64,000 bases of DNA from Candidatus Hecatella orcuttiae (GCA_002011035.2 MTLY02000001.1:1-64000), one strand, 5' to 3'; positions 1 through 26,633 are shown, counted from the first letter of the stretch. The notes: generated from the letters alone by a model not told the origin. Numbers and translations are program-made.

Positions 1-1
1 C

Positions 2-1426
2 CCCGCCATCCTCCAACTCAAACTCGGCACAGACCCCAACGGCCACTTCACAGCCTTCGACGCAAAAATAACCATGAGCACAGGAGGCTACGCCATTGAG
101 GGAGGAGCTGTGATAGGAGTCTGCTGCACGATGCTCACCTGCCTTTACAAGTTTCCAGCCTTCCGGGTTACAGGAGACTCTGTTTACACCAACTGCCCCC
201 CAAGCCTTGGCTTCCGGGGCTTTGGCAACCCTCAAGGCCAGTGGGCTTTGGAGCAGCTTGTGGACATGGCTGCGGAGGAACTGGGCCTAGACCCCCTGGA
301 GATACGGAGGAGAAACCAGGTGAGAGTAGGAGACACGGTCCCTTCAAGCAAGAATCCTCTTAAAACCTGCGGCTTGGAGGAGTGTATGGACCGGGGGGCT
401 GAGCTCATCGGCTGGAAGCGGAGAGAGGACCCCGCCTACCGGGGAAAAGGCGCCAAAAGAAAAGGCATAGGCATGGCCGCTGTAACTCAAGTGTCAGGGT
501 TGGGGGGAACCTTCACACCCTATCCGGAAGTTTCGAATGCTGTAATTAAGATGAACGATGACGGCACATTCAATTTGATGATGGCTCTCCACGAGATGGG
601 TGAGGGAATAAAGACCGTTATCCTTCAAATAGCAGCTGAAGAACTAGGAGTGCGAATAGACGACATTAAACTGAGTTCGGAAATAGACACGGACGTATGC
701 CCCTTCGACCACGGCTCTTTCGCAACCAGAACCACTTACGTATGCGGCTCCGCTGCTAAGCTCGCAGCGGCTGACGCGCGCAAGCAAATCTTGAAGAAAG
801 TAGCGGAAAAACTGGACACCAAGGTTGAAAACCTTGAAATGGTTGAAGGGAAAATCTACGTTCGCGGAGACCCTGAAACAGCAATTTCTCTCCGAGAACT
901 CGCGGAGCACATCCGCTTCCATGACATGGAAGACGCTGGGACCATCGTCGGCCGCGGGTCCTTCACAGCTCAAGCCAACTCCCCACCCTTCGGAGCTCAG
1001 TTTGCCGAGGTGGAGGTGGACATGGAAACGGGGGAGGTGCAACTCCTCCGCTTCGCAGCAGTTCACGACGTAGGCACAGCCATCAACCCCCAAGCGGTGG
1101 AGGGTCAGATTGAAGGCGGCGTAGCTCAAGGCATAGGCTACGCCCTCACCGAAGACACCGTGATTGACCCTCGGACAGGGGAAATTCTCACCGCCAGTTT
1201 CCTCGACTACAAAATCCCCTCCTCTCTGGATATGCCTCCCCTCTACGTCGCCCTCGTTGAGCCTTCCGATCCCTATGGACCCTACGGAGCCAAGGGCGCC
1301 GGCGAACCTCCCATCGTCCCCACGGCTCCGGCCATCGCTAACGCCATTGCTAACGCCATAGGTGTTCGCATCAAAAGCTTGCCTATGACCCCTGAGAAGA
1401 TACTGAAGGCGTTGAAAAAACTCTGA
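2..1426 (+). CDS. Xanthine dehydrogenase/CO dehydrogenase family molybdopterin-binding large subunit, 5' truncated by window edge
   Basis: Frame is open from base 2 (PAILQLKLG...). Motifs GFRGFGNPQG, EMGEG, GSFATRT, INPQAVEGQIEGG..QGIGYAL and GAKGAGE (catalytic Glu) are present. Confidence 0.93.
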   Translation, partial: PAILQLKLGTDPNGHFTAFDAKITMSTGGYAIEGGAVIGVCCTMLTCLYKFPAFRVTGDSVYTNCPPSLGFRGFGNPQGQWALEQLVDMAAEELGLDPLEIRRRNQVRVGDTVPSSKNPLKTCGLEECMDRGAELIGWKRREDPAYRGKGAKRKGIGMAAVTQVSGLGGTFTPYPEVSNAVIKMNDDGTFNLMMALHEMGEGIKTVILQIAAEELGVRIDDIKLSSEIDTDVCPFDHGSFATRTTYVCGSAAKLAAADARKQILKKVAEKLDTKVENLEMVEGKIYVRGDPETAISLRELAEHIRFHDMEDAGTIVGRGSFTAQANSPPFGAQFAEVEVDMETGEVQLLRFAAVHDVGTAINPQAVEGQIEGGVAQGIGYALTEDTVIDPRTGEILTASFLDYKIPSSLDMPPLYVALVEPSDPYGPYGAKGAGEPPIVPTAPAIANAIANAIGVRIKSLPMTPEKILKALKKL

Positions 1427-1499
1427 AAAACCAAGATTAAACTACAGCTGTCTCTGGAGTGCTCCCGGACAGCCGGGCTAGAAGTTTACATGCAGCCTC

Positions 1500-2468
1500 C
1501 TATGTTTTTTCGCCTCTCACATACGGAGTTAAGAGCGCGGTGGGTGCGCCTATCTTTTTCGCCAAAGCCGTCGTAGAAATGGAGCTTAAAGCGAGAATGG
1601 TGAGAACGTAGGGCATCATCATGAGCAGGTTGTAGGGGATACCTATTCCTACAGCCTGAAGCCTCAGCTGAAAGGAGTCAATGACTCCGAAAAACAGCGA
1701 GCCGGCGAAGCTCCATACAGGATTCCACATTCCAAAGATCACCAAGGCTATGGCTATCCACCCACGCCCGGCGGTCATGAGTTCCACCCACTGGCGGGTG
1801 TAGGCCAGTGACAGGTAGGCTCCTGCGATGCCGGCCATGATGCCTCCGAAGAACACGCAGAGATACCTCGTCAAATAGACGTTCACGCCTAGAATGTCCG
1901 CGGCTTCAGGGTTTTCACCCACCGCCCTGATTATCAGGCCGATCCGTGTTTTGAAGAGAATCCATGAAGACACAGCGACGATGAAGAAGGCGAGATAAAC
2001 TAAAACGTTTTGGCTGAACAGAATAGGCCCTACTATCGGAAGGTCGCTCAAGCCGCGGATGTAGATGGGATAGAAACCCGCCTCCGCCGCCATGCCGATC
2101 CACTTTTTCCCAATGTAGCTGGTTACCCCTATGCCGAAAATGGATAGAGCAAACCCTGAAATCACTTGGTCTGATCTGGTTGTGATGGACAGGAAGGCAT
2201 GAATAAGACTCATGGCTCCGCCGCATAAGGCTGCCAAAAGGATCCCCATCCAAGGATTTCCTGTGATGTTCACCCCGATGAAGCCGACTAAAGCCCCTAC
2301 GATCATCATTCCCTCTACGCCCAGATTTAGCACCCCTGAGCGTTGAGCGTAGATTTCCCCAACCGTAGCCAAAATGAGAGGAGTACCCAGCCTCAACGCC
2401 GAAGCCACCAGTGCTGTTGAGAAAATTTCTGTCAGAATTTCCTGCACGGCTTCATCCACCTCTTTCAA
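1500..2468 (-). CDS. ABC transporter permease, nucleoside/simple-sugar (BPD_transp_2) family
   Basis: GEIYAQRSGVLNLGVEG, RAVGENPEAA, MTAGRGWIAIALV; multiple TM segments. Confidence 0.93.
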   Translation of the reverse strand: MKEVDEAVQEILTEIFSTALVASALRLGTPLILATVGEIYAQRSGVLNLGVEGMMIVGALVGFIGVNITGNPWMGILLAALCGGAMSLIHAFLSITTRSDQVISGFALSIFGIGVTSYIGKKWIGMAAEAGFYPIYIRGLSDLPIVGPILFSQNVLVYLAFFIVAVSSWILFKTRIGLIIRAVGENPEAADILGVNVYLTRYLCVFFGGIMAGIAGAYLSLAYTRQWVELMTAGRGWIAIALVIFGMWNPVWSFAGSLFFGVIDSFQLRLQAVGIGIPYNLLMMMPYVLTILALSSISTTALAKKIGAPTALLTPYVRGEKT

Positions 2469-3513
2469 AGCTGACCCTATAACGGATTAGAAACTCTCCT
2501 GCAACAATTAGAAGAAGCACCAGCGATTCGATGATGTTCACCAAAGCCACAGGTATGCCGACTGCCCGCTGCATCATGTCAGCTCCCACCAGTAAGCCTC
2601 CGAAGAAAATGGATGAAGCAATTACGCCGATGGGGTGTAATTTCCCCAATAACGCCACCACCACGGCTGTGTATCCGTATCCGGGGGATAAGCCAGGCAT
2701 GATTCTGTAATGAATGGCGGACACCTGAACCATGCCGGCGATACCCGCGAGGCCTCCGCTTATTATCACAGCTGGGATGATGGTTTTGAAGATGCTGATG
2801 CCTGCATAGCGGGCGGCTTTTATGTTGGCGCCAACGACTCGGATTTCATACCCTAACCTAGTTTTCATCAGCATCAAGTAGATGAGAACGGCGGCTATCA
2901 AGGCGAAGAAAATGCCCACATGCAGCCGAGAACCAGCTAGGTTGGGCAGTCTGGCGGCTTCGGTGATGATGGGGGACCACGGAAAGCCTTCGTACATCCA
3001 CGGCCCTACTAACATGTGGGTTACCCACAATATCGCTATGTAGTTCATCATCAGAGTGGTGATTATTTCATTTACTCTCAGCTTTACCTTCAAAACTCCC
3101 GGTATCATCCCCCAAAATCCTCCGCCCAAAAACCCTAGAAGCAACATGAAAGGAAGAAGAAAGGCAGCGTCAAGTTCGGAAAAAGCATAAGCAGCCCATG
3201 TGGCTGCGAAGGCTCCCATGTACAGCTGTCCTTCCGCTCCGATGTTGAAAAAGCTGCATCTAAAAGCCAAAGCGACACCCAAACCAGCCAGCATGAGAGG
3301 CGTTGCCTTGACAACTGTTTCGATTAAACCGAACCTGCTGCCGAAGGCTCCTAAAAATAGTTTCCCATAAGCCATCAGAGGGTTAACTCCGGAGGTGACC
3401 AAGAAAACGGCTCCTAACAGCAAAGCTAACAGGACACTGGACGCTGAAATAAGCAACTTCAAATAAAGGGAGGGAGAAGGCCGTTCAACTAACCTCAGCC
3501 GCAGTCGCTGCAT
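2452..3513 (-). CDS. ABC transporter permease, nucleoside/simple-sugar family
   Basis: FNIGAEGQLYMG, NEIITTLMMNYIA, GYGYTAVVVALLG; hydrophobic. Confidence 0.93.
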   Translation of the reverse strand: MQRLRLRLVERPSPSLYLKLLISASSVLLALLLGAVFLVTSGVNPLMAYGKLFLGAFGSRFGLIETVVKATPLMLAGLGVALAFRCSFFNIGAEGQLYMGAFAATWAAYAFSELDAAFLLPFMLLLGFLGGGFWGMIPGVLKVKLRVNEIITTLMMNYIAILWVTHMLVGPWMYEGFPWSPIITEAARLPNLAGSRLHVGIFFALIAAVLIYLMLMKTRLGYEIRVVGANIKAARYAGISIFKTIIPAVIISGGLAGIAGMVQVSAIHYRIMPGLSPGYGYTAVVVALLGKLHPIGVIASSIFFGGLLVGADMMQRAVGIPVALVNIIESLVLLLIVAGEFLIRYRVSFERGG

Positions 3514-3520
3514 GGAAGAT

Positions 3521-5044
3521 TCACTTTCCCCCAGCCATCATTAAGCCAACCTCTTCTCTCTGCGCAGCCTTAGCCTCCACCGTGCCCACGATTTTCCCTT
3601 GATACATCACCGCTATTCGGTCGCTTAGAGCCATGATTTCGTCAAGGTCTTCTGAGATGAGCAGTATGGCGACACCTCTCCGCCTCTGCTCCAGCAGCAT
3701 CCTTTGAATATATTCTGTGGCGCCCACATCTAGGCCTGAAGTAGGGTGAACGGCCACCAAAACCTCCGGGCTGGCGGAGATTTCCCGCGCCAATAGAAGT
3801 CTCTGCTGATTCCCCCCCGAAAGCAATTTAACTGGGGTGTCTCTGGCTGGGGTCATAATGTTAAAACTTGAAATCAGACGGTCGCAGAAATGCTCCACAG
3901 CCTGACGGTCGATGAATAATCCTCGGTTGAAATCGCTACTTCTGTAATTCTTAAGAATCAGGTTCTCTAAAACACTCATGCTTGTGACAAGTCCTATGTT
4001 CACACGGTCTTCAGGTATGTGAGCTAACCCTAAGTCAATTCTCTCCCTCGGTGAACAGCCGGTGATGTCTTGGCCTTTAAGGAAAACTTTTCCTCCCGAA
4101 GCCTTCCTGAGGCCTGTGATAACCTCCGCTAATTCGCTCTGGCCGTTGCCCGCTACTCCGGCAATCCCAAGGATCTCTCCCTGTCTTACATACAGTGAAA
4201 CTCCGCGAAGAGCTTCCAGCCCTTTGTCGTTGAGTGCGTGAAGATCTTTCACTTCTAAAATAACCTTGCCTTTCCCAAGTTCTTCTCTTTCAGGTCTGAA
4301 AATGACCTCCCGGCCTACCATCATGCGAGCCAGTTCAGCCTTGTTTGTTTCGTCCTTATTGCAGGTGAAGACAACTTTTCCTGCGCGCAGCACCGTGATC
4401 CTGTCTGCAACGGACATAACTTCCTCCAGTTTATGGGTGATGAACACGATGGAGAAACCTTGCTTCACCATCAGCCTAAGGGTCTCGAAAAGTTTCACGG
4501 TTTCCTGAGGTGTAAGCACTGAGGTGGGTTCGTCTAAAATTAACGCCCGAGTTCCCATGCACAAGGCTTTGATGATCTCCACCCGCTGCTGCTCACCTAC
4601 TGAAAGTTGCCAGATCTTTGTCTGAGAATCAACTTTCAACCCGTATTTTTCAGAAAGCTCAGCTATCTTGGATCTGACCTCTTCCACATTCTGAGAAAAT
4701 AAACCTGCAGACTTCAGCCCTATCATCACGTTTTCCACAGCGTCGAAGGAGGGCACCAGCGAGAAATGCTGCTGCACAAACCCTATCCCGTTTCTTATGG
4801 CCTCCTTGGGTGAGTTAGACGTGAAACGTTTCCCGCGAAGCAGTATATACCCCTCATCCGGCTGGTAGAGTCCGTACAGTATCTTCATCAAAGTAGTCTT
4901 CCCAGCGCCGTTTTCCCCCAGCAGCCCGTGGATTTCACCTTCTCTGAGGTCGAAGTCTACGTGGTCATTAGCCACCAAACTACCGAACCTTTTAGTTATA
5001 CCCCGCATTGAAACAACATTCGCCTTTTCCAAAGCTACCGTCAC
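3521..5044 (-). CDS. ABC transporter ATP-binding protein (tandem NBD, nucleoside CUT2 type)
   Basis: Walker A GENGAGKTT, LSVGEQQRVEI, LDEPT, LSGGNQQ, ISEDLDE. Confidence 0.95.
   Translation of the reverse strand: MTVALEKANVVSMRGITKRFGSLVANDHVDFDLREGEIHGLLGENGAGKTTLMKILYGLYQPDEGYILLRGKRFTSNSPKEAIRNGIGFVQQHFSLVPSFDAVENVMIGLKSAGLFSQNVEEVRSKIAELSEKYGLKVDSQTKIWQLSVGEQQRVEIIKALCMGTRALILDEPTSVLTPQETVKLFETLRLMVKQGFSIVFITHKLEEVMSVADRITVLRAGKVVFTCNKDETNKAELARMMVGREVIFRPEREELGKGKVILEVKDLHALNDKGLEALRGVSLYVRQGEILGIAGVAGNGQSELAEVITGLRKASGGKVFLKGQDITGCSPRERIDLGLAHIPEDRVNIGLVTSMSVLENLILKNYRSSDFNRGLFIDRQAVEHFCDRLISSFNIMTPARDTPVKLLSGGNQQRLLLAREISASPEVLVAVHPTSGLDVGATEYIQRMLLEQRRRGVAILLISEDLDEIMALSDRIAVMYQGKIVGTVEAKAAQREEVGLMMAGGK
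4872..4925 (+). repeat. 54-bp exact direct repeat, copy 1 (copy 2 at 16968-17021)
   Basis: CCGTACAGTATCTTCATCAAAGTAGTCTTCCCAGCGCCGTTTTCCCCCAGCAGC is identical in both ABC ATPase genes. Confidence 0.9.
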
Positions 5045-5057
5045 TGATAATTAGGGT

Positions 5058-5078
5058 GAAGAAAAAATAAAGGAGAGG
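5058..5078 (-). terminator. Pyrimidine/U-rich intra-operon terminator candidate after the binding-protein gene
   Basis: The minus strand reads CCTCTCCTTTATTTTTTCTTC just after the stop codon. A similar tract follows the second binding-protein gene. Confidence 0.45.
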
Positions 5079-5085
5079 TTAAAGG

Positions 5086-6159
5086 CTACTCCCAAGTATA
5101 CTCGCTGATGGTGGGAACTACAAACTCGCCTGCAACTATCTGGCTTCGTCTTTCAGCTATCTTTTCCTTCACGTCGTCAGGAACCATAGGCCCGAAGAGA
5201 GTTAGGTCCGTGGCACCTTCTGCTATGCCTCGATAATAGAACTGGTTCAAATCCTCCCTCGTCAAAGTTCCCGCTCTCCAGCCTTCTATGATCTCCCCGA
5301 AGAACGGCGCCCAATTCCATATGATGATCGCCACCACAGCTTCTGGGGCGATGAAGCGGCTGTCGGTGTACATTCCGAAGGCATAAACACCTCGCTCCGC
5401 GGCTGCCTCCAGAACCGCAGCGGAGTCTTGGTAGTGGCTGAGAAAGTCTGCTCCAGCGTCAATAAGAGCGAAGGCTGTCTCTTTCTCTTTCGGCGGGTCA
5501 TACCATGTACCTGTAAAGGCCACTCGAACCTCGATGTCGGGGTTAATCTCTTTGGCTCCCAAGATGTAGGCGTTGATACCGTACACCAGCGTTTCGATGG
5601 GGTAAGCCCCGACGAAGCCTATTACTCCCGTCTTGGTCATCATTCCGGAAAGCATCCCTGCCAAATACTGGCTTTCGTAGTCGCGAGCGTAGTACGTGGC
5701 TACTCCCGGGGCAGTGGGTCCGCCACCAGGGTACAGGAAAGCAACCTCCGGGTGTTCCTCCGCTAGCTTGAAGCAGGCGTCTTGGTAACCCCAACTATGA
5801 GCGAAGATCACCTTATGGCCTAATCTAATCCAATCGCGCAAGTACGGCTCAGCATCAGCCTCGGGGATGTTGTCGGCGTAAGACATTTCCACAGCAGGTA
5901 ATGTCTCAGATACCTCCTTCATCGCCGTGTAAGCAGCATAGTTCCACCCGAAATCCCCTATGGGGGACGGTAGCAGCAAAGCTACCTTAATGGGCTCAAC
6001 TTCAACTGGTGCGGGTGTAGGCGTTGGGGTTGGGGCGGGTCTTGTGGCTTGCCAGGCGGCGTAGCCGCCCACACCAGCCACCACCGCCGCAGCAATGGCG
6101 GCAATGCCGTATTTCATCGCACTTCTACGAGATTTATCTGCCAAAACAGTTACCTCCAC
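5086..6159 (-). CDS. BMP/PnrA-family ABC substrate-binding protein with twin-arginine-like signal/anchor
   Basis: SRRSAMKY + hydrophobic segment + PT linker; GDFGWN, HSWGY, GTWYDPPKEKE motifs of the BMP family. Confidence 0.9.
   Translation of the reverse strand: MEVTVLADKSRRSAMKYGIAAIAAAVVAGVGGYAAWQATRPAPTPTPTPAPVEVEPIKVALLLPSPIGDFGWNYAAYTAMKEVSETLPAVEMSYADNIPEADAEPYLRDWIRLGHKVIFAHSWGYQDACFKLAEEHPEVAFLYPGGGPTAPGVATYYARDYESQYLAGMLSGMMTKTGVIGFVGAYPIETLVYGINAYILGAKEINPDIEVRVAFTGTWYDPPKEKETAFALIDAGADFLSHYQDSAAVLEAAAERGVYAFGMYTDSRFIAPEAVVAIIIWNWAPFFGEIIEGWRAGTLTREDLNQFYYRGIAEGATDLTLFGPMVPDDVKEKIAERRSQIVAGEFVVPTISEYTWE
6008..6085 (-). repeat. 78-bp inverted repeat, copy 1 (75/78 identical to 12354-12431)
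   Basis: Encodes [25 protein letters not shown] in both divergent binding-protein genes; 3 mismatches, all third-position. Confidence 0.9.
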
Positions 6160-6183
6160 TTCCCGTTTTTATCCCCTATTGGA

Positions 6184-6199
6184 AATATAAGCTTTTGGG
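6184..6199 (-). promoter_or_regulatory. BRE-TATA promoter of ABC operon 1
   Basis: The minus strand reads CCCAAAAGCTTATATT about 25 nt upstream of the start; similar to CCAAAAGTCTTATATA upstream of operon 2. Confidence 0.6.
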
Positions 6200-6291
6200 T
6201 TCAGAGTATAAAAAATTGTTTTTCCAAGGAAGGACGCCGAAAGAATTAAAATTACGTCCATATCTAATTGATGATCCTAACTAGCTAGAAG

Positions 6292-6969
6292 GTGAAGGTG
6301 TTGTCAGAAGATCAGGAATCGATTCTCAGGGTAGATTGGGATATCCCGAGGAAGATCTATCCGCCGAAGGTGGTAACTTTGGCCAGCGGTGAGAAACTGG
6401 TAATTCGGGAGATAGAGAGAGGAGAGGTGCCTCCTATTCTTGAGGCCATTAGACCGCTACTGACGGTTGAGAAGGATTACTATGACATTGTAAGTGCCAG
6501 AGTATATGCAGAGCTCTTGGGATGGTACAGATATAGAGTGAAAAACGAGTACTGCCTCATTGGAGTGGTAAATGGTGAATTGGCAGGACTGGTCAACAAT
6601 AGGCTGGTTAATGAAAAGGTTTGCATGAGCCTTCATACCCTTGCTTTGAAAAGAGGTGGACGGATAGGGGCCCATCTGTTTGCAGCCAAACAGGAGCATG
6701 CTATTGAGAACTACAGCGTGGACGAGGTTTGGGTTACCGCGGAAAGTCCTATAGGGTTTAGGCGGTGGATGGTGGAATGGAGCTTGCAGCCTAGGCCTGA
6801 CCTGCAACATGAATTGGGAGGTGTAACGGTTTACGTCTTGACGAAGGAAAACTACTACAAACTGAAGCCGCAGAAAGTCTTTGGAGAAAGACCGGTTCCT
6901 GAAGAATTATATAAGGAGTCGCTTAATCCCAAGATAATAATACCAGACATAATACGCCAACAAGAGTAA
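6292..6969 (+). CDS. Putative GNAT-fold N-acetyltransferase
   Basis: Beta-strand run CLIGVVNGELAGLV followed by an acetyl-CoA motif-A-like KRGGRIGAHL and VWVTAES. Fold call by eye. Confidence 0.6.
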   Translation: MKVLSEDQESILRVDWDIPRKIYPPKVVTLASGEKLVIREIERGEVPPILEAIRPLLTVEKDYYDIVSARVYAELLGWYRYRVKNEYCLIGVVNGELAGLVNNRLVNEKVCMSLHTLALKRGGRIGAHLFAAKQEHAIENYSVDEVWVTAESPIGFRRWMVEWSLQPRPDLQHELGGVTVYVLTKENYYKLKPQKVFGERPVPEELYKESLNPKIIIPDIIRQQE

Positions 6970-6977
6970 GATGAACT

Positions 6978-8165: not shown

Positions 8166-8518
8166 TTGTGCAAAAAATGACCGGGTTCAAGTGTGAAAAA
8201 TGTGGAAAGATGTTTTATCCAAAACATGCTCGCTGCCCAAGGTGTGGAAGCTTGGAGTTGAAGGAGATAGATCTGGGAAACGAGTGCACGTTGATGACTT
8301 ATACGAAGCTCTTCGCTGTACCGGAAGGTGTGGAGCAAATTCCCCTCTTACTGGGCATAGTGGAATTCAAAAACGGAGTTAGGGCGCTGGGTCAGATAGT
8401 GGCTGAAGAGGTAGAAATAGGCGCCACTTTACAGCCGGTATGGGGTCCCCTAAGAAAGGTCCACGGCAAAACGGTCAGCGGCTTCAAGTTCGAGCCAGTC
8501 AAGCGAAAACTTAGTTGA
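8162..8518 (+). CDS. DUF35 family Zn-ribbon/OB-fold protein (thiolase partner)
   Basis: CEKCG..YP..RCPRCGS zinc ribbon followed by an OB-like domain; overlaps the thiolase stop. The true start may be GTG 8168 or ATG 8177. Confidence 0.9.
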   Translation: MIVQKMTGFKCEKCGKMFYPKHARCPRCGSLELKEIDLGNECTLMTYTKLFAVPEGVEQIPLLLGIVEFKNGVRALGQIVAEEVEIGATLQPVWGPLRKVHGKTVSGFKFEPVKRKLS

Positions 8519-8525
8519 AGAAAAT

Positions 8526-9887: not shown

Positions 9888-10072
9888 GGTCTAACTAATA
9901 AAAATACCCAATAAAAAATTTGCCCTAATTCTAAAAAACAGTGGAAAACGCTGGAAACATCCCGCCAACCCAGCGTAGGCGAGACGCCTCACTCGAAAAA
10001 ACCAGTGCTCATATATGCCACTTTTTCACACTCACTCCTCAGCTGGGATTATAGGCATACTTACTGCTGCGT

Positions 10073-14622: not shown

Positions 14623-14624
14623 CA

Positions 14625-18856: not shown

Positions 18857-19945
18857 ACGGATCTTTCCGTAGAATTAGCCGGTGTTAGGTTGCCTTTCCC
18901 CACCGCTCTTTCATCCGGCCCTCTGAGCCGGGACGGCGCCACCATCAGGAAAGCCGCTCAGCAGCATGGTGTGGGGGCTGTTTTCACCAAAACGATCATG
19001 GAAAAATATGAAGATACACCCCGGCCCAGCATGGCTACGGTTAAAGGCGGTTTACTGAATTATGACTGGCAAGCTCCAGGGATAAGCGAATTCTCTGAAA
19101 GAGAGCTTAGAATCGCCAAGGAAGGGGGGAAGCCAGTTATAGCGAATGCTCTGGGTTTGACGGTGGATGCAAGCGTAAAATTGGCTGCCGCCTTAGAAAA
19201 GGCGGGAGCAGACATGTTTGAGCTTCCCGTCCCAGCCGCCCCTCTGAAAGAGCTTACGGAGACGGTGAAGGCTGTCCGGGAGGCCATCAGCATACCTTTC
19301 ATCGTAAAGCTGGGCCCTGACATTCCTGACATACCCAAATACGCTCGAGCCATAGAAAGCGTTGGTGTTGATGCCATATCAGGAATAAACACCTTCGGCC
19401 CCTGTCTCTCCATCGACGTGTACACCGGGAAGCCTCTGCTGGGGGCGAAATCCGGCTACGGCTACCTCTCAGGTTCGGCGATAAAGCCGCTGGCAGTTCG
19501 CTGCGTCGCCGAGATGGCCATGGCTGTCAGGATTCCTGTGCTGGGCGGCGGGGGAATAAGCAATGGCGAGGACTCTATAGAGATGTTCATGGCCGGTGCC
19601 ACCTGCGTTCACCTTCACACGGCAGCTCTGCTACGGGGCTTGGGGGTATTCTCAAAGATCGTCAACGAACTAGAAGAGTTCATGAAGAAAATGGGCTACA
19701 GAAGCTTGGACGACATCAGAGGCATATCGCTAAAGTACCTGCGTAAAGAAGCCACCTATACTCTATTTCCAGCTAAAGTGGAAGCTGAGCTCTGCAACGG
19801 CTGCGGGGCTTGTGAAAGAGTATGCGCTTACGACGCTGTCAAGGTCGTAGAAGGTATAGCCCAAATAGATGAAGAGGCCTGTTTCGGCTGCGGACTCTGT
19901 AAAAGCATATGTCCCACCCGGGCGATCACCTTGCATAAAAGGTGA
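18857..19945 (+). CDS. Dihydroorotate/dihydropyrimidine dehydrogenase (PreA)-like FMN protein with C-terminal 2x[4Fe-4S]; probable ACG start
   Basis: KT motif, VKLGPD, INT, GYLSG.AIKPLA, GGGGI, two CxxCxxCxxxC motifs. The N-terminal DLSVELAG lies upstream of the called TTG. Confidence 0.85.
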   Translation, partial: TDLSVELAGVRLPFPTALSSGPLSRDGATIRKAAQQHGVGAVFTKTIMEKYEDTPRPSMATVKGGLLNYDWQAPGISEFSERELRIAKEGGKPVIANALGLTVDASVKLAAALEKAGADMFELPVPAAPLKELTETVKAVREAISIPFIVKLGPDIPDIPKYARAIESVGVDAISGINTFGPCLSIDVYTGKPLLGAKSGYGYLSGSAIKPLAVRCVAEMAMAVRIPVLGGGGISNGEDSIEMFMAGATCVHLHTAALLRGLGVFSKIVNELEEFMKKMGYRSLDDIRGISLKYLRKEATYTLFPAKVEAELCNGCGACERVCAYDAVKVVEGIAQIDEEACFGCGLCKSICPTRAITLHKR

Positions 19946-19951: not shown

Positions 19952-21343
19952 TTGGCTGACTATATCTTCGAAAACGGAACTGTTGTGACCATGGATGGGA
20001 AAGGGAAAATCATAGAAGACGGCGCTGTGGCTGTGGAAGGAAACAGAATTCTAGCTGTCGGAAAAACCTCCGACGTCAAGAGGAGACACAGCGCGGAAGA
20101 ACGGATTGACGCCAGAGGTAAGGTTATCTTGCCTGGTTTTGTAACCTCCCACAATCACATGTACAACTCGTTGACACGCTACATGAAATTGTCCATCTCC
20201 CCGGAAATAGGCTTAGATTTCGGACCTATTCTAACTAGGTGGTGGTGGCCGAAGATCGAAGACACCTGCAGAAAGGACGATGTCTACGCTGGAGTTTTGC
20301 TGGCGAGCACCGAAATGGTTAAAAGAGGAATCACCTGCACCGCTGACCTTCAAGAAGGCCAAAACCTCATCCCCGGGGTTCTGGACTATGCTGCGAAAGC
20401 CGTGGAAAAGGTTGGAATCAGAGCCTGCCTTTCCTTTGAAGCGACGGATAGAGAAAGCGTCAAGAAAGGACGGCTGGGCCTCAAGGAAAACGAAGCCTTC
20501 ATCAAGAAATGGAATTATAAAAAAGATTCACGCATCCGAGGGATGATGGGAGTGCACACATGCTTTTCATGCCATCCTGAGACATTAAGGAAAGCCAGAG
20601 AAATCGCTGACAAACACCGGTGCGGCATTCAAATCCACATCGCTCAAAGTGTATACGAAGTCAAAATGATCCGGGAAAAATATGGAGTGGGGGGTTCTGT
20701 TGAATTTCTAGACAAGCTAGGTTTCCTAGGGCCGGATGTGAATGCCGCCCACGGAATCTACATCTCAAAAAAAGAGCTGGAGATATGGCAAAGAAACGAT
20801 GTGGGATTGTCTTTTAACATAAAAAGCAACGCCTTCTGGGCTAACGGCCTCGCCCCCGTGGTTGATCTGCTCCGAAGAGGCTGCAAGGTTGGTCTCGGCG
20901 TCGACGGTGAGAACATCTACGACATGTTTGAGCTGATGGCTTATTCTGCGGCGATACTTCGCCTTTACCATTTGGATTTATCTCTGATACCTCCCAAGCA
21001 GGCGCTTGAAATGGCCACCATGGGCGGAGCCAGATGTTTAGGGTTGGAAAAGGAAATAGGTTCTCTTGAAGCTGGGAAGAAGGCTGATGTTTTAGTTGCA
21101 GATTTTTCCGGCCACGCTCATTTAACGCCTATTTTTGATAAGCTCGCCGCCTTGGCATTCTATGTCAGAGGCACGGATGTGGACACGGTCATGGTGAACG
21201 GGGAGATTGTGGTTCGGGGGAAGAGGATTTTGACGGTGGATGAAGAAAAGATATCAGAGCTAGCTGCCAAAAGGGCTGCAAAGTACCAAGAGCGCGCCGC
21301 GTCCGCTCCGTTAAACCCTCCGTGGAACTTGCCGAAAAAGTGA
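19952..21343 (+). CDS. Amidohydrolase, SsnA-like
   Basis: SHNHMYNSLTR, WWW patch, IHIAQS (Gln for the usual Glu), AAHG, GVDG. Confidence 0.85.
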   Translation: MADYIFENGTVVTMDGKGKIIEDGAVAVEGNRILAVGKTSDVKRRHSAEERIDARGKVILPGFVTSHNHMYNSLTRYMKLSISPEIGLDFGPILTRWWWPKIEDTCRKDDVYAGVLLASTEMVKRGITCTADLQEGQNLIPGVLDYAAKAVEKVGIRACLSFEATDRESVKKGRLGLKENEAFIKKWNYKKDSRIRGMMGVHTCFSCHPETLRKAREIADKHRCGIQIHIAQSVYEVKMIREKYGVGGSVEFLDKLGFLGPDVNAAHGIYISKKELEIWQRNDVGLSFNIKSNAFWANGLAPVVDLLRRGCKVGLGVDGENIYDMFELMAYSAAILRLYHLDLSLIPPKQALEMATMGGARCLGLEKEIGSLEAGKKADVLVADFSGHAHLTPIFDKLAALAFYVRGTDVDTVMVNGEIVVRGKRILTVDEEKISELAAKRAAKYQERAASAPLNPPWNLPKK

Positions 21344-21385: not shown

Positions 21386-22771
21386 TTATTTTTTCAAAAT
21401 ATGGTGCCTTTGACATGGTACGAACCTACCTTTCCCAAGCTTACCCCACACTTCACCGTCCACCATCATAAGCTCTCCTTTAGACACAGTCATCACAGGT
21501 ATTCCTTTCATGCGCCATCCTTCGAAAGGTGTCCAATCGGCTTTATGGTGAAGGCGGTCTGCTGATATTTTAAATTCCTTTTTCCTGTCGATGACCACGA
21601 TGTCCGCGTCGGACCGCGGTTGGATGACGCCCTTCCTAGGGTAAAAGCCAAATATCCTCGCCGGCTTGGTGCAGCAAGCATCAACGAATCTTTCTAAGGA
21701 GATTCTCCCTTTGTTTACACCTTCGCTCATCATGAGCATAAGCCTTGTTTCAACACCAGGCACCCCGCCTTCAACCTCCCATATGTTTTCCCATCCCTTG
21801 TCCTTCTCCCTCTTTAGAGGAGCGTAGTGGTCCGTTGTGATGATGTCTAGGGAGCCGTCTGCCACTGCCCTCCACAGCGAGTCCCTATCTTCTCTGGACT
21901 TCAAGCAAGGGTTCGTCTGAAGATACGGCCCGAACTTCCTGAGGTCTTCTTGAGTGAAAAATAGAAAGTGTGGGCAGGTCTCACCGGTTAAAGGGAAACC
22001 CTCCTGCTTACATCTTCTAAGGAAATCTGCAACGTTGCCCGAGCCGACGTGAAAAATATGCAGAGGCACCCCGGCTTCCTCGGCAAACAGGATCGCTCTC
22101 ATGGCAGCTTCATCCTCACATATTCTAGGCCGTGACTCTGCATGAGCAGTAGCATCGATTCTCCCAGCTTTTTTAAGCTCCTCTTGAAGGTGTCTTCTTA
22201 TCTCTTCGCTCTCCGCATGAACTGAAACTATCCCCTTCGCCTTTCCCACTTTTCTAAACGACTCCAATAGGATTCCGTCGTTCATGACTTGTTCAAGCCC
22301 GTTGCAGTTAGCTAGGACATGTTTGAAGGATGCAACACCTTTCTCGGCCAAGCTGTGAATACAGTCCATGGATTTTTCATCCAATATGTAAACGTGCAGA
22401 GAAAAATCTATTAAGGACTCCCTCTCACCTACCATTTTCACCCTTTCAAAACTTTTTTCCACATCTTCCCCCCAGCCTGCAAAATCAATAACCATCGTGG
22501 TCCCACCTGCTAAGGCGGCCTTTGTGCCGCTTTCAAAATCTTCTCGGTAGCGAAATTTTTCCCCATTATAAATATGGACGTGGGCGTCGATGCCCCCGGG
22601 TATAATTAGGTTTCCTTTCACGTCAATAACCCTGTCTGCTCCAGGGAGATGTGCATCCTTTGCCACTGCTACGATTTTTCCGTCATCCACAACCAAACCC
22701 GCGTCCAGTAGTCCGTAGGATGTGAAAATTTTCCCGTTTTTCAAGACTAGATCGACTTTACTCACTTTCAT
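21386..22771 (-). CDS. Cyclic amidohydrolase (dihydropyrimidinase/hydantoinase/allantoinase family)
   Basis: PGGIDAHVH, AALAGGTT, SFK (carbamylated Lys), VHAE, IFH, ETCPH, TDHYAP, PGVETR. Confidence 0.92.
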   Translation of the reverse strand: MKVSKVDLVLKNGKIFTSYGLLDAGLVVDDGKIVAVAKDAHLPGADRVIDVKGNLIIPGGIDAHVHIYNGEKFRYREDFESGTKAALAGGTTMVIDFAGWGEDVEKSFERVKMVGERESLIDFSLHVYILDEKSMDCIHSLAEKGVASFKHVLANCNGLEQVMNDGILLESFRKVGKAKGIVSVHAESEEIRRHLQEELKKAGRIDATAHAESRPRICEDEAAMRAILFAEEAGVPLHIFHVGSGNVADFLRRCKQEGFPLTGETCPHFLFFTQEDLRKFGPYLQTNPCLKSREDRDSLWRAVADGSLDIITTDHYAPLKREKDKGWENIWEVEGGVPGVETRLMLMMSEGVNKGRISLERFVDACCTKPARIFGFYPRKGVIQPRSDADIVVIDRKKEFKISADRLHHKADWTPFEGWRMKGIPVMTVSKGELMMVDGEVWGKLGKGRFVPCQRHHILKK

Positions 22772-22839: not shown

Positions 22840-23850
22840 ATGGTGAAATTCAAGCATAGGAAGCCGATGGACCCTCTAGAAAAACTGTTAACACCTACGA
22901 TCTACGGCAACACGCCAACCTTCTTGGCTGTCCCTCGCGCGAGGGACAAGCGAGACCTTAAAGGAGCTGACGTGGCAATTATAGGCGGCGGCTATCAGAG
23001 TTTCGGGGAAAACCCTTGGAGGACAGATTTAGGTTTAACTTTTTACAGCCAAGGAGAAAGAACTTTTGAAATCCTCGACCCCATGCTGCTGAGAAAAGCT
23101 TCGGTGAAATACAGCGGATTTCTGCCAGAACTGAACATCGACGTGTTTGAGCATATAAGGCTTGTCGACTACGGAGATGTAACCGGCATCTCTCCGATAA
23201 TAACCCGGGAAGACTGGGTTAGAGCTGTTCAGCGAACTGTTGAAAAAATAAGCGAAGTGTTGGAGGCGGGCTGCATACCTATCACCATTGAGAGCAGCAT
23301 GTACGCTGTTGCGAAGGCCATGGCTGAACGGTCTAAGGGAAGCATAGGCATCATAACTTTGGATGCGCATGGAGATAACGCCTGTCCACCCCCGTACGTT
23401 GGCTGGGTTGATCCCGTTTCCACATTGGAAAAGGTAGACATGGAAAAATTCGTTCTGATCGGCATGCGGGGACCGCGAAACTTCAAAGAACAATTGGACT
23501 GGTATCAGAAACGAGGAAGCCATGTCTACACCTACAAGGACATCAAAGAAAGGGGCATTAACGCCGTCATCCAGGAGGCTGTCAAGATAGCCTACAAAGG
23601 AACTGAGAACGTCTTGCTGAACATAGATTTCGACGTATTAGACCTGAGTGTTGCCCCGGGATTAGATGAACCCTTGGGAATTATGATGGAGGACCTCTTA
23701 ACTGTCACTCTCCGAATCGGTGAAAAAGGCTTCGCAGCCTTCAATATAGAGTGGATACCGAAGCCCACAGCGGCCTTATACCACATAGTAACTTGGACTA
23801 CCTTATACTTGCTAGCCGGTTTAGCTATGGGCAGAAGAAAACTAAGATGA
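22840..23850 (+). CDS. Arginase/agmatinase (ureohydrolase) family protein, divergent
   Basis: LVDYGD, LDAHGD, IGMRG, DFDVLD..APG; the GGDH motif is replaced by IESS. Confidence 0.8.
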   Translation: MVKFKHRKPMDPLEKLLTPTIYGNTPTFLAVPRARDKRDLKGADVAIIGGGYQSFGENPWRTDLGLTFYSQGERTFEILDPMLLRKASVKYSGFLPELNIDVFEHIRLVDYGDVTGISPIITREDWVRAVQRTVEKISEVLEAGCIPITIESSMYAVAKAMAERSKGSIGIITLDAHGDNACPPPYVGWVDPVSTLEKVDMEKFVLIGMRGPRNFKEQLDWYQKRGSHVYTYKDIKERGINAVIQEAVKIAYKGTENVLLNIDFDVLDLSVAPGLDEPLGIMMEDLLTVTLRIGEKGFAAFNIEWIPKPTAALYHIVTWTTLYLLAGLAMGRRKLR

Positions 23851-23909: not shown

Positions 23910-24410
23910 GTGAAATTGGTGGTCAAAAAAATTCTCTACGCAGACCCTTTGGAATGCTGCGGATGTAGAAACTGCGAAATAGCCTGCTCCGTGGCAAAGG
24001 AAGGCATTATGAACCCACATAAATCTAGAATAAGGGTTGTCCGAGAAGGGCCTGTAATCGACATGCCGATAGCCTGCCGCCAGTGCGCAGACCCTCCCTG
24101 TGCCAAACCCTGTCCCACCAATGCCTTGGTGAAAGAGAACGACTTAGTTGTACTTTATGAAGAAAACTGCATAGGTTGTGGTTTATGCGTGGAAGAATGC
24201 CCTTTCGGAGCCATTTTCATCCACCCAGATAAAGGAACAGCCATCAAATGCGACCAATGTGGCGAATGCCTCGATTTCTGCCCCACCGGAGCGTTAAAGC
24301 TCGTATCCACCGAAGCGGTGGCGCATGAAAAACGCATAGACCTTGCGCAAACTCGAGTTAAGGTGATTGAGGAATGGCTTTTAAATTCAAAGGATATGGC
24401 GGAAAAATAA
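23910..24410 (+). CDS. Multi-[4Fe-4S] ferredoxin-like subunit of the AOR operon
   Basis: CCGCRNCEIAC, CRQC..PPC..PCP, CIGCGLCVEECP, KCDQC. Confidence 0.92.
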   Translation: MKLVVKKILYADPLECCGCRNCEIACSVAKEGIMNPHKSRIRVVREGPVIDMPIACRQCADPPCAKPCPTNALVKENDLVVLYEENCIGCGLCVEECPFGAIFIHPDKGTAIKCDQCGECLDFCPTGALKLVSTEAVAHEKRIDLAQTRVKVIEEWLLNSKDMAEK

Positions 24411-26296
24411 TCCGAGTGGATCTGGGCCGGGAAAAAACCGTTTCCCAACCGCTATCCAGCGACATGGCAAAGAAGTTTCTAGGCGGAAACGGCTTCGTCA
24501 CAAAAATCTTATGGGATGAAGTTAAACCCGGATTAGACCCATTTGACCCAGAAAACCGGCTCATCTTCGCCATCGGCCCTCTTTCTGGTACAGGATGGCC
24601 TCAAGCCGGTAGGTTTGAAGTGGGAGCGAAGTCTCCTCTCACAGGCATTTATGGTGATGCCAGTTGCTGCGGCCATTGGGCGTCAGAGTTGAAGTTCGCA
24701 GGCTACGATGCCATAGTCTTCCAAGGGAGAGCCAGTAAACCTGTTTACCTTTGGGTGGATGATGACAAAGTTGAACTCAAAGACGCAAAAGATGTTTGGG
24801 GAAAAACAACCTCTGAAACCGAGAAAATACTGAGAGAGCAGCATGGCAAGGATGTTCAAGTTGCCAGCTGCGGCCCTGCTGGAGAAAATCTGGTGAGATT
24901 CGCCGGAATACTGCACCAGCGAAGGGCCGCTGCGCGAAGCGGGATAGGCGCCGTGATGGGATCTAAAAAACTGAAGGCCGTAGCCGTTCACGGTTCAAAA
25001 GATGTGGCGCTGGCTGATCCTGAGGGATTCTACAAGTTTTCAAGGGAAATCATTGAGCTGTATAAACGGGATAAATTCATCGAGTCTAGGGCTAAATATG
25101 GAACTCCGATTTTGGTAGAGCTGATGAACGAAATCGCCCGATGGCCTGTGAAAAATTTTCAAACAGGATATACTCCCCATGCTAAGGAAATAGGCGGCGA
25201 ACGGATTAGGGAAGAGTATAGGATTAAGGACAGAGCCTCCTTCGGATGCTGGGCTAGATGTGAAAAACCTTTGATGGTAAAGCAGGGACCCTACAGGAGG
25301 ATCTATGCAAAACAGCCTGAGTATGAAAGTTTATCAGCGTTAGGAGCTAGAAACTGGATTCACAATCTTGACGTCATCATCTACGCCAACGAGCTCTGCG
25401 ACGAATACGGCATGGACACCATATCTACTGGAGGAACAATTTCCTGGGCTATAGAGTGTTATGAGAAAGGAATCATCACCAAAGAAGACACAGGCGGCTT
25501 AATTCTATCTTGGGGCAACACTGAAACCCTCATCGAGCTTATCAACAAAATCGCAAAAAGGGAAGGATTTGGAAACCTCTTGGCTGAAGGAAGCTTAAGA
25601 GCCTCTAAAAAAATCGGAAAAGGCTCCGAGAAGTATGTGATGCACGTTAAAGGGATGGAGATTGCTGCTCAAGACGGCAGAGCACAAAAGTCTATGGGAT
25701 TAGCTCACGCCACCTCCAGTAGAGGCGCAGACCACCTGAAGGCTTTCCCCCTCCTCGACGAGGTTGTAATGAATGAATATATCGTAGCCCGCTATGGCCG
25801 AGAGTATCTTCCCGAAATGGCCAATAGGCTTGATATCAAACATAAACCCTTTGAGGTTAAAGACGGGGAGGAACTATGCGCCCTATGCGACAGTCTACTG
25901 CTGTGTAAAAGCGCAGGAACCAGTCTACCTCTCTTCACAGGGGCAGTTTATTATCCGGAAATGGCCAAAGCCGTTAAACTGGCGACAGGCATGAACATTG
26001 ATGCATCAGGGATGCGGACGATAGGAGAAAGAATCGTCAACCTACAAAGGGCCTTCAACATCAGAGAGGGAATCTCGCGGAAAGACGATACACTGCCTTC
26101 AAGGTTCACCGAGGAACCAGCTCCCGAAGGGCCGCCGAAGGGGCATGTCGTCGAGTTGGAGCAACTGCTAGACGAATATTATAAGCTCCGGGGTTGGGAT
26201 AAAGAAACAGGGCTCATCCCCCGAAAGAAACTAGAAGCATTAGACCTAAAAGATGTAGCCGACAGCTTAGAGGCCATGGGAAAACTTCCAAGATAA
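24374..26296 (+). CDS. Aldehyde:ferredoxin oxidoreductase family (tungsten) protein
   Basis: KSPLTG, GPAGENLVRFA, AARSGIGAVMGSKKLKA, PEYE, GMDTIS, RGADH, YYKLRGWD. Confidence 0.95.
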   Translation: MAFKFKGYGGKIIRVDLGREKTVSQPLSSDMAKKFLGGNGFVTKILWDEVKPGLDPFDPENRLIFAIGPLSGTGWPQAGRFEVGAKSPLTGIYGDASCCGHWASELKFAGYDAIVFQGRASKPVYLWVDDDKVELKDAKDVWGKTTSETEKILREQHGKDVQVASCGPAGENLVRFAGILHQRRAAARSGIGAVMGSKKLKAVAVHGSKDVALADPEGFYKFSREIIELYKRDKFIESRAKYGTPILVELMNEIARWPVKNFQTGYTPHAKEIGGERIREEYRIKDRASFGCWARCEKPLMVKQGPYRRIYAKQPEYESLSALGARNWIHNLDVIIYANELCDEYGMDTISTGGTISWAIECYEKGIITKEDTGGLILSWGNTETLIELINKIAKREGFGNLLAEGSLRASKKIGKGSEKYVMHVKGMEIAAQDGRAQKSMGLAHATSSRGADHLKAFPLLDEVVMNEYIVARYGREYLPEMANRLDIKHKPFEVKDGEELCALCDSLLLCKSAGTSLPLFTGAVYYPEMAKAVKLATGMNIDASGMRTIGERIVNLQRAFNIREGISRKDDTLPSRFTEEPAPEGPPKGHVVELEQLLDEYYKLRGWDKETGLIPRKKLEALDLKDVADSLEAMGKLPR

Positions 26297-26327
26297 AGTC
26301 TTTTATTTTTTCCATTCTCAGCTTAAT

Positions 26328-26633
26328 ATGGGGAACTCTGTATCTATGAAAGTCAACGTAGTCTATCTTACAACATTCAGAGAAATCGTCGGTAGGCGAA
26401 GCGAAACTGTGGAATTGCCGGATGGTTCAACGCTCATGGATTTACTTGAAACTTTAGCTGAAAGAAGCCAAAAATTCCGGAAGGAACTGTTCAACCCAGA
26501 GGGGGGAGAGATTAGAAGCTACAACAAGGTGGCGTTAAACGGCATCTACGCAGAGTATCTGAACGAAAAATTCGCTACAAAGCTTAGAGAAGGAGACAAA
26601 ATACTCATCGCTCAGGGAGTTTCCGGAGGTTAA
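26328..26633 (+). CDS. MoaD/ThiS/SAMP ubiquitin-like sulfur carrier
   Basis: Beta-grasp pattern, LNG, C-terminal VSGG; follows AOR. Confidence 0.9.
   Translation: MGNSVSMKVNVVYLTTFREIVGRRSETVELPDGSTLMDLLETLAERSQKFRKELFNPEGGEIRSYNKVALNGIYAEYLNEKFATKLREGDKILIAQGVSGG

Follow-up and report, generated by a model that had tools for sequence, protein, structure and literature searches.

Pyrrolysine (Pyl) activates methylamine in MtmB. Pyl-less members of the MttB family (PF06253, a TIM-barrel family unrelated to PF05369) have expanded into many paralogues, and the substrates of the MtgB type are quaternary amines that arrive via betaine-type carriers and not via BMP systems. Removal of N-methyl groups from purines and pyrimidines is catalyzed by AlkB/FTO-type Fe/2-oxoglutarate dioxygenases and the Rieske caffeine demethylases NdmA-E, which need O2 and release formaldehyde; indeed, to our knowledge all known nucleobase N-demethylating enzymes require oxygen. 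Anaerobic purine and urate breakdown in enterobacteria and clostridia is encoded by clusters of the xdhD-ygfM-ssnA-hyuA-ygeW-ygeX-ygeY-yqeA-ygfK type, in which we know of no corrinoid methyltransferase, and the Atz enzymes AtzB and AtzC remove N-alkyl groups from triazines hydrolytically as alkylamines without a corrinoid. The present analysis concerns a stretch of 64,000 nucleotides (nt) from the archaeon Candidatus Hecatella orcuttiae (GCA_002011035.2, MTLY02000001.1:1-64000; hereafter the window), in which a Pyl-less MtmB homologue and its corrinoid protein are embedded in a catabolic island (window 1 to ~27.3 kb) among BMP-type ATP-binding cassette (ABC) importers and nucleobase-type hydrolases.

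The only non-Pyl MtmB with a demonstrated function, among approximately 1,000 Pyl-less homologues, is MtqB, which together with MtqC forms the tetramethylammonium/choline:corrinoid methyltransferase of Methanococcoides methylutens Q3c; its substrate is proposed to mimic the Pyl adduct in the active site, and a Met and a Cys near the ligand are conserved in its clade (PMC13044021). The same source describes the non-Pyl MttB family (e.g. the glycine betaine enzyme MtgB) as Pyl-family members that, without Pyl, took pre-activated N-methyl substrates (PMC13044021). Among the BMP-type binding proteins, AtzT retained guanine and binds hydroxyatrazine (PMC6834077). The clade that includes the MtmB homologue of the window probably acts on compounds imported by BMP systems and is functionally tied to COG0402 hydrolases; the evidence is a gene neighbourhood that recurs across archaeal phyla and metagenomes, a joint expansion of methyltransferase and importer genes, and a hypervariable residue at the position of Pyl.

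The MtmB homologue and its island

Gene calls were taken from an open reading frame (ORF) listing, and families were assigned by Pfam and NCBIfam profile searches of the window proteins, the NCBIfam cut-offs quoted being the equivalog/curated ones. The MtmB homologue matches PF05369 with 264 bits over profile positions 4-450 of 450, i.e. along its entire length, and the solved M. barkeri MtmB (1L2Q/1NTH) with E = 2.5e-56 over residues 12-461. Its reading frame is uninterrupted, with neither an in-frame stop nor a UAG codon, and Trp205 (codon 10859-10861, motif GRPGMPAWG) aligns to the pyrrolysine (X) of 1L2Q; the Pyl-type MtmB of the host itself, to which the window protein is 31% identical, has TAG at the same alignment column. 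The corrinoid gene overlaps mtmB by 17 nt, and its product carries DIHDIG (the His-on motif DxHxxG) at residue 101 and scores 202.6 bits with TIGR02370 (cut-off 215.3). From its sequence, the window MtmB is presumed to be a substrate:corrinoid methyltransferase. The features of the island are as follows (coordinates, strand, description):

2-1426 (+): xanthine dehydrogenase (XDH)-family molybdopterin (Mo) subunit, C-terminal two thirds (MoCoBD_2 3.8e-81)
1500-6159 (-): BMP ABC importer a (Pfam Bmp, ABC_tran, BPD_transp_2), with binding protein 5086-6159, double ATPase 3521-5044 and permeases 2452-3513 and 1500-2468, all (-)
6292-6969 (+): hypothetical protein, 225 aa, without Pfam match
6978-8518 (+): thiolase (PRK06064 456 bits, above cut-off) and zf-ChsH2/DUF35-type protein
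8526-9887 (-): COG0402 (TRZ/ATZ-type) amidohydrolase 1 (Amidohydro_1 1.9e-63)
10073-11473 (-): non-Pyl MtmB homologue, 466 aa (PF05369 264 bits)
11457-12143 (-): corrinoid protein, MtmC/MtbC/MtgC-like (B12-binding and B12-binding_2)
12274-13461 (+), 13546-15557 (+) and 15602-17230 (-): BMP b binding protein, permeases and double ATPase, respectively (Pfam)
17366-18721 (+): COG0402 amidohydrolase 2 (Amidohydro_1 4e-66)
18890-19945 (+): dihydroorotate dehydrogenase (DHOD)/PreA-like flavoprotein with C-terminal 2x[4Fe-4S] domain (DHO_dh, Fer4)
19952-21343 (+): SsnA-like COG0402 amidohydrolase 3 (SsnA PRK07203 300 bits)
21386-22771 (-): dihydropyrimidinase/hydantoinase-type cyclic amidohydrolase (TIGR02033 376 bits)
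22840-23850 (+): arginase-family ureohydrolase (PF00491 2.4e-25)
23910-24410 (+): polyferredoxin
24374-26296 (+): AOR-family oxidoreductase (AFOR_N and AFOR_C 1e-130)
26328-26633 (+): MoaD
26824-27297 (+): dCMP/cytidine-type zinc deaminase, last gene of the island (PF00383 1.3e-17)

All genes named in an earlier sequence-only reading of this DNA were recovered at their positions from ORFs, Pfam and NCBIfam, and the orientation it had described, with mtmC-mtmB on the strand of amidohydrolase 1 and divergent from BMP operon b, was confirmed. Its tungsten-dependent AOR stands as an AOR only, the sequence being unable to tell tungsten from molybdenum. The dCMP-type deaminase at 26824-27297 carries the island slightly beyond the end given in that reading (26633), and housekeeping genes begin at 27317. 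The hypothetical protein, thiolase and zf-ChsH2 protein (6292-8518) are probably outside the pathway; neither the thiolase nor the 225-aa protein was seen in the related loci surveyed.

The left edge of the island is lost, as the 5' end of the XDH gene is missing at the contig start. Of the three contigs of the host assembly (C1 to C3), two, C1 and C2, open near residue 297 of XDH paralogues (genes 78% identical), and the far ends of C1 and C3 each cover roughly the first 30 residues of an XDH gene (ends 89% identical over 99 nt). The assembly gaps thus lie inside XDH repeats, and the window island may continue into a second island at the far end of C1 (see below) or into the end of C3. Contigs X3, X4 and X5 from three public sequencing runs of other studies match the island junctions at 100%; X3 spans 6056-10109 (amidohydrolase 1 to the 3' end of mtmB) and 10334-12360 (mtmB-mtmC to the start of BMP b). 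Because contigs of other runs bridge them at 100%, the junctions between amidohydrolase 1, mtmB, mtmC and BMP b are not peculiar to this assembly.

The 3' segment of mtmB itself shows a further peculiarity: the last ~90 residues of the protein equal those of the paralogue on C2 (C2:213508-213970) except for one E/Q position, the two proteins being 64% identical overall and their DNA 87% over 474 nt (~10073-10540). The public-run contigs break and branch exactly in this segment, with loose ends at 10080, 10139 and 10415. Together, these features point to a recent gene conversion between the window MtmB and the C2 paralogue.

Both BMP operons encode a Bmp-family binding protein, two BPD_transp_2 permeases and a double ABC ATPase (Pfam). 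The binding protein of BMP a is nearest, among solved structures, to the Brucella BMP protein 3S99 (1.5e-60) and to AtzT (6PI5, 1.6e-59), and by sequence it resembles these adenine/guanine-type, i.e. purine-base, binders. The best solved relatives of the BMP b binding protein are 7X0R 'Lbp' (6e-34), for which no published ligand was found in the literature search, and AtzT (1e-28). In NCBIfam, the best models of both binding proteins and the permeases are those named 'putative B6 ABC transporter', matched far below their cut-offs.

Amidohydrolases 1 and 2 keep the metal/catalytic motifs HxH, HxxE, H and D, and are nearest to methylthioadenosine/S-adenosylhomocysteine (MTA/SAH) deaminase, atrazine chlorohydrolase, 8-oxoguanine deaminase and guanine deaminase; triazine hydrolase and hydroxydechloroatrazine ethylaminohydrolase are also among the relatives. 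The best solved relative is MTA/SAH deaminase 4F0R (7e-61) for amidohydrolase 1 and atrazine chlorohydrolase 4V1X (1.4e-72; MTA/SAH deaminase 1e-65) for amidohydrolase 2. None of the COG0402 amidohydrolases reaches an NCBIfam equivalog cut-off, the SsnA-like amidohydrolase 3 scoring 300 bits with PRK07203 (cut-off 444). The remaining enzymes behave similarly: the XDH subunit, encoded by a truncated gene, scores 442 bits with XdhA (cut-off 780) and the hydantoinase 376 bits with TIGR02033 (cut-off 393), and the ureohydrolase, which has no paralogue in the genome, has only weak matches to formimidoylglutamase and agmatinase models. As a set, the XdhA-, PreA-, hydantoinase- and SsnA-like proteins are reminiscent of the enzymes with which purines and pyrimidines are degraded anaerobically. 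The suggestion of the earlier reading that the ring is degraded reductively depends on the PreA-like flavoprotein, which scores 159 bits against a PreA cut-off of 335 and is thus not an equivalog, in an island (window 1-27.3 kb) where no PreT-like gene was detected with Pfam or NCBIfam; this part of the reading was weakened. The same applies to nucleosides as substrates. No nucleoside phosphorylase or hydrolase was found in any island examined; the two PNP-family genes and one DeoC-family gene of the genome all lie outside the islands, and an IU-nucleoside hydrolase was not found in the genome. In consequence, free bases are favoured over nucleosides, in line with the proximity of BMP a to purine-base binders, and the nucleoside route has become less likely.

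Recurrence of the linkage and expansion of the clade

The linkage of MtmB, amidohydrolase and BMP genes, whose absence from relatives was to have counted against the sequence-only reading, is conserved in Hadarchaeota, Desulfurococcales and metagenome loci. Family labels in this survey were derived from blastp (E <= 1e-8) against the window proteins and not from HMMs. Five loci of two Hadarchaeota metagenome-assembled genomes (MAGs), L001-L005, with MtmB proteins 50-56% identical to that of the window, all have BMP and/or amidohydrolase-1-like genes beside MtmB; the latter are 62-68% identical and adjoin MtmB directly in L002 and L005. Locus L006 of a Desulfurococcales MAG combines a BMP ABC system, MtmC and two MtmB genes. 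Neither a BMP gene nor a full-length amidohydrolase was detected in nine bacterial loci with distant homologues (25-33% identical), one of which (L013) encodes an 85-aa amidohydrolase-like fragment. From the metagenomes, 306 stretches were matched, 249 of which encode a relative, and 78 loci were kept; these fall into 57 groups at >=90% identity, with 29 groups of >=8 kb. The counts below include many short contigs and related loci that are not independent, with the few distant homologues as sole control:

MtmC: 61 of 78 loci, 26 of 29 dereplicated groups of >=8 kb
BMP: 23 of 78 loci, 14 of 29 groups
Amidohydrolase: 18 of 78 loci, 11 of 29 groups
AOR: 13 of 78 loci, 4 of 29 groups
XDH: 9 of 78 loci, 7 of 29 groups
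Any of BMP, amidohydrolase, AOR, XDH and hydantoinase: 40 of 78 loci, 20 of 29 groups

A hydantoinase occurs in two of the 29 long dereplicated groups. In seven metagenome loci a co-oriented amidohydrolase directly follows MtmB, and in 16 a BMP operon immediately flanks MtmC-MtmB. Gene order in L050 and L092 (MtmB 58-59% identical) comes close to that of the window: mtmCB is flanked by both BMP systems, and AOR, hydantoinase and amidohydrolases come after. A hydantoinase homologue is present in these two loci and also in L110. Binding proteins whose best window match is that of BMP b flank MtmC-MtmB in L001, L003, L004, L006, L050, L052-L055, L067, L068 and L076. In a FastTree phylogeny of 119 MtmB rows, the window protein falls into a 99-row clade with a support of 100; the linked genes are scattered across this clade and are lacking from the bacterial outgroup rows except for the fragment in L013. 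A different arrangement was observed in L052-L055, L060, L062, L063, L067, L068 and L076, in which a homologue of MtaB (methanol:corrinoid methyltransferase) directly follows MtmB behind a single corrinoid gene, so that two MT1-type enzymes share one corrinoid protein; RamA is often located upstream and a BMP ABC operon downstream.

The clade is strongly expanded in the two Hadarchaeota MAGs behind L001 and L005: with the clade profile, G201 (1.8 Mb) yields 39 MtmB-family matches, 24 of them above 600 bits, and G202 (1.4 Mb) 28. The binding proteins of the Bmp family are expanded in parallel (19 in G201, 14 in G202, six in the host), and in a hand count, 10 of the 19 and 8 of the 14 BMP genes have an MtmB match on their contig no more than 10 kb away. 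Each of the two MAGs also holds a TAG-containing MtmB-like match. Among 137 clade sequences, the Pyl-aligned column contains 18 residue types (His 37, Trp 13, Thr 11, among others) and is the second most variable of 454, although it lies inside the conserved stretch GRPGMP..G..SPTEYG, as expected for a pocket residue that sets specificity. At least 120 clusters (90% identity) belong to the clade at >=48% identity to the window MtmB, and the whole family comprises 1,365 clusters at 50% identity (E <= 0.001). The distribution of the clade is patchy. MtmB found no match in 13 genomes of the same family, and among 200 other sampled genomes of the same class no match exceeded 410 bits and none was thus at clade level, as against 694-771 bits for the seven host copies; inheritance within the own lineage was rejected on these counts (0 of 13 and 0 of 200).

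Seven of the host MtmB genes form one clade with 48-72% mutual identity. Four of the seven, corresponding to three of five independent loci, have a BMP binding-protein gene no more than 10 kb away; for five random points, a position near one of the six BMP genes in three cases has P = 0.002, a value that is only indicative given that the loci are few and some of them paralogous, so that recurrence across genomes is the stronger argument. A second island at C1:506-534 kb contains a BMP ABC system, three amidohydrolases, three MtmB, MtmC, a URO-D-type MT2 and an AOR-polyferredoxin pair, as well as a hydantoinase, a PreA-like and an adjacent PreT-like protein, two carbamoyltransferases, a carbamate kinase and two PALP enzymes. 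Within this island, an MtmB paralogue (C1:511343-515713) is flanked on both sides by amidohydrolases 72% identical to each other, as if a tandem duplication had recently taken place around the methyltransferase. Four of the six AOR genes of the host, each of the four accompanied by a polyferredoxin, are located within 13 kb of MtmB/MtmC (window 23910-26296; C1:517787-520177; C3:410521-412793; C3:607932-610268), three of them within 1 kb; the AOR could oxidize an aldehyde product or supply low-potential electrons.

The host genome (1.75 Mb, three contigs, 97% complete) is archaeal according to its markers fibrillarin, Nop5, S8e, L15e, S3Ae and eIF2-gamma. By our own ORF calls and blastp it encodes 13 corrinoid proteins, six BMP systems, 10 COG0402 amidohydrolases, eight XDH-family large subunits, six AORs and three hydantoinases, next to 12 MtmB-family genes; the island is one of several similar modules in the host and not a unique pathway. 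MtaB was not found among the called ORFs (blastp). MCR (MCR_alpha) had no match in this 97% complete genome, while control genomes did match; one RamA, two MtrH and one CdhC are present, and URO-D-type matches number five among the called ORFs, with two Pfam URO-D genes adjoining MtmC copies, one of which is among those five. With MCR not found and RamA, MtrH, CdhC and URO-D-type proteins present, the host is therefore a non-methanogenic methylotroph with a Wood-Ljungdahl route, and the genes needed for feeding the methyl group into one-carbon metabolism, as the sequence-only reading had proposed, are in place.

A complete pyrrolysine system (PylS-like, radical-SAM PylB-like, ATP-grasp PylC-like and PylD) is encoded at C1:328-364 kb (L039, L040). 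Beside the pyl genes lies a TAG-containing MtmB (C1:354085-355476) with the TAG exactly at the Pyl column, and the region further contains a TAG-split MttB, MtbB, an ammonium transporter and three corrinoid proteins; in all, the host carries TAG-containing MtmB, MttB and MtbB genes and a non-Pyl MttB. A genetic code that reads every TAG as Pyl was considered and rejected: TAG ends 367 of 1376 ORFs of >=150 aa and is thus an ordinary stop, and the ORF calls hold.

Two further loci of the host, C3:396-415 kb and C3:594-613 kb (L046, L047), contain distant MtmB paralogues (29-34% identical to that of the window) alongside PotD-like SBP_bac_8 ABC importers. MtmC and a class-III aminotransferase are also present, as is an adjoining pair of polyferredoxin and AOR genes; the whole gives the impression of a module in its own right, which would demethylate an amine and leave its carbon skeleton as an aldehyde. 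Beyond the island, the window contains a phage-integrase-family recombinase gene (36495-37550, ~9 kb away) and, on the minus strand at 38584-46843, genes of the large, small and delta subunits of an Mvh-type [NiFe] hydrogenase with a maturation protease, a 1124-aa HdrA-like fusion with a PreT/GltD-like domain, and HdrB- and HdrC-like genes. Hyp maturation genes and a formate-dehydrogenase-like molybdopterin enzyme are located at 47097-55140, and a second PreT-like protein (Fer4_20 and Pyr_redox_2) with a DHOD-B electron-transfer-like subunit at 58969-61208. The latter pair could represent the type of partner that the island's PreA-like protein lacks; alternatively, it could be an enzyme resembling glutamate synthase or sulfide dehydrogenase.

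Proposed pathway and competing explanations

The reading we favour, with confidence about evenly balanced, is that N-methylated bases of a purine- or pyrimidine-like type, once imported, pass their methyl group to the corrinoid, after which the ring is deaminated and degraded. A BMP-type ABC importer would bring in the N-methylated heterocycle; the non-Pyl MtmB would hold it in the pocket that is filled by the Pyl-methylamine adduct in true MtmB and transfer the N-methyl group to the Co(I) of the neighbouring corrinoid protein. The methyl-corrinoid would be discharged by MtrH or by a URO-D-type methyltransferase, whose genes are located in other parts of the genome, to tetrahydromethanopterin (H4MPT) and the Wood-Ljungdahl route as the presumptive acceptor, with RamA keeping the corrinoid reduced. 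The demethylated base would pass to a COG0402 deaminase, predicted to be encoded in the same operon, so that demethylation would precede deamination, and then to the XDH, SsnA-like, hydantoinase, PreA-like and ureohydrolase enzymes.

A wider proposal, which we put forward more tentatively and hold to be possible only, regards the Pyl-less MtmB clade as an O2-independent N-demethylase toolkit for methylated nucleobases from the DNA and RNA of dead cells, in which each paralogue would be tuned at the Pyl-replacing residue and served by its own BMP importer, the methyl groups entering the Wood-Ljungdahl route. Candidate substrates would be N6-methyladenine, N4-methylcytosine, 7-methylguanine and 1-methyladenine, whose heterocycle with a methylamino or methyl-iminium group would stand in for the Pyl-methylamine adduct; the carriers would be non-methanogenic subsurface archaea such as Hadarchaeota, which would subsequently deaminate and ferment the bases.

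Several points weigh against the demethylation of nucleobases. The assignment of the methyl donor is drawn wholly from gene neighbourhood, and an N-methyl group on a neutral exocyclic amine is a poor methyl donor without activation. Importer b, the commonest type flanking mtmCB, is only distantly similar to solved binders, and none of the PreA-, SsnA- and hydantoinase-like proteins reaches its equivalog cut-off in NCBIfam. Linkage itself is incomplete: 9 of the 29 long dereplicated loci have none of the linked genes, the clade member at C2:213508 of the host has unrelated neighbours, and 18 rows of a 21-row subclade are without linked genes, with TRAP transporters adjoining in three to four loci. 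An MtaB homologue directly follows MtmB in 10 of the 12 loci that contain one, and neither these MtaB neighbours nor the recurrent AOR-polyferredoxin pairs are explained by a nucleobase pathway. Finally, sister MtmB paralogues with 72% identity are accompanied by binding proteins that are non-sister and 36-37% identical; importer and methyltransferase were thus not duplicated there as one unit, and their co-duplication was rejected for this pair.

The explanation that survives best next to the favoured one, unlikely as we consider it, is a different substrate class: BMP systems would import N-methylated or quaternary compounds which the MtmB paralogues demethylate, e.g. methylated pyridines (vitamin-B6-, nicotinamide- or trigonelline-like), pterins, amino sugars or osmolyte-like molecules, and the purine enzymes would serve a partly separate pool. 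The importers speak in both directions, since the best solved match of BMP b is 'Lbp' and not a purine binder and the best, though far below cut-off, NCBIfam models are those for B6 transport, whereas BMP a is close to adenine/guanine binders. Likewise, the 19 and 14 BMP proteins of two small MAGs exceed the needs for canonical bases, and AOR-polyferredoxin and MtaB neighbours would better fit aldehyde-yielding or O-methylated substrates; operonic COG0402 deaminases, however, follow MtmB in seven loci, the amidohydrolases are nearest to purine/adenosine-type deaminases and triazine hydrolases, and XDH and hydantoinase accompany MtmB in 7 and 2 of the 29 long groups, respectively. The sole characterized non-Pyl MtmB uses quaternary amines (PMC13044021).

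Less probable still is a hydrolysis-first order, in which a COG0402 amidohydrolase would cut off the exocyclic N-methylamino group as methylamine for the MtmB homologue or the Pyl-type MtmB. The similarity of the amidohydrolases to atrazine chlorohydrolase, triazine hydrolase and hydroxydechloroatrazine ethylaminohydrolase would agree with such a cleavage, the name and fold of the MtmB family suggest methylamine, and the host has a full Pyl system with a Pyl-type MtmB. That MtmB, however, is located elsewhere (C1:354 kb) together with the pyl genes, and the MtmB linked to the amidohydrolases lacks Pyl; a residue that occupies the second most variable column is ill-suited to one small common substrate, and 7 to 24 paralogues in one genome would serve no purpose if there were a single product.

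Equally remote is the absence of any coupling, i.e. mtmCB as a self-contained methylotrophy unit (e.g. for a small quaternary amine, as MtqB) that tends to land in transporter-rich catabolic islands, with the purine genes acting independently of it: unrelated genes such as the thiolase, clade members without linked genes, the frequent neighbours MtaB, RamA, URO-D and MtrH and the mobile or recombining appearance of the islands (clade not found in 200 class genomes; converted 3' segment) would fit it, but the same partners, often in a single operon or as a divergent pair, are found again on many metagenome contigs and in two or more archaeal phyla, MtmB and BMP genes co-expand, and the distant-homologue control is negative.

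The conserved context provides a testable substrate class for a clade that reaches at least 24 copies in a 1.8-Mb genome. If nucleobase demethylation holds true, a corrinoid route would explain the anaerobic use of methylated bases, which ordinary deaminases may not accept, and would represent a new methyl source for anaerobic one-carbon metabolism in the subsurface and in marine sediments; it would also show that loss of pyrrolysine opened the pocket to new substrates, and the modularity of importer, corrinoid protein and methyltransferase would provide a workable guide for assigning functions to the orphan paralogues individually.

Comparison with described systems

As far as the literature was searched, the substrate class and the steady partnership with BMP importers and nucleobase-type hydrolases are presumed to be new. 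In agreement with the earlier statement that no pathway combining these parts had been described, no publication on such a pathway was found (mostly at title/abstract level), none was found that pairs MtmB with xanthine dehydrogenase, and among the publications listed for MtmB and purine none addresses this linkage (title/abstract level). New from the window are an archaeal carrier of both Pyl-type and Pyl-less MtmBs, the co-expansion in Hadarchaeota and the hypervariable Pyl-aligned position.

The Pyl-dependent MtmB/MtmC (1L2Q, 1NTH) shares with the window the family and, by sequence, the fold, the adjacent corrinoid protein with DxHxxG and the presence of RamA in the host; in contrast, the window protein has no UAG, and Pyl is replaced by Trp205 at a position that is hypervariable in the clade. 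MtqB is likewise a non-Pyl MtmB homologue beside its own corrinoid protein. It operates, however, in a methanogen and feeds methyl-coenzyme M, whereas the present host lacks a detectable MCR, and it is not reported together with BMP importers, deaminases or XDH. MtqB is placed near the Pyl-type MtmBs (PMC13044021), whereas the window MtmB belongs to the separate 99-row clade. With the non-Pyl MttB family the window module would share the evolutionary logic, and it would work like the MT1-corrinoid-MT2 systems.

On the side of the ring-degrading enzymes, the window and C1:506-534 kb together hold XDH, SsnA-like, hydantoinase, carbamoyltransferase, carbamate kinase, PALP and PreT/YgfK-like Fe-S flavoproteins, as does the anaerobic purine cluster of bacteria; the differences are the archaeal host and matches to the NCBIfam equivalogs of that cluster that stay below the cut-offs. 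AtzT and the Atz/Trz enzymes of s-triazine catabolism offer the parallel of a purine-type BMP binder with COG0402 hydrolases that act on N-substituted amino-heterocycles (PMC6834077). The O2-dependent demethylases, finally, catalyze the same net reaction as proposed here, the removal of N-methyl groups from purines or pyrimidines, but the proposed module would act anaerobically and conserve the methyl group on the corrinoid.

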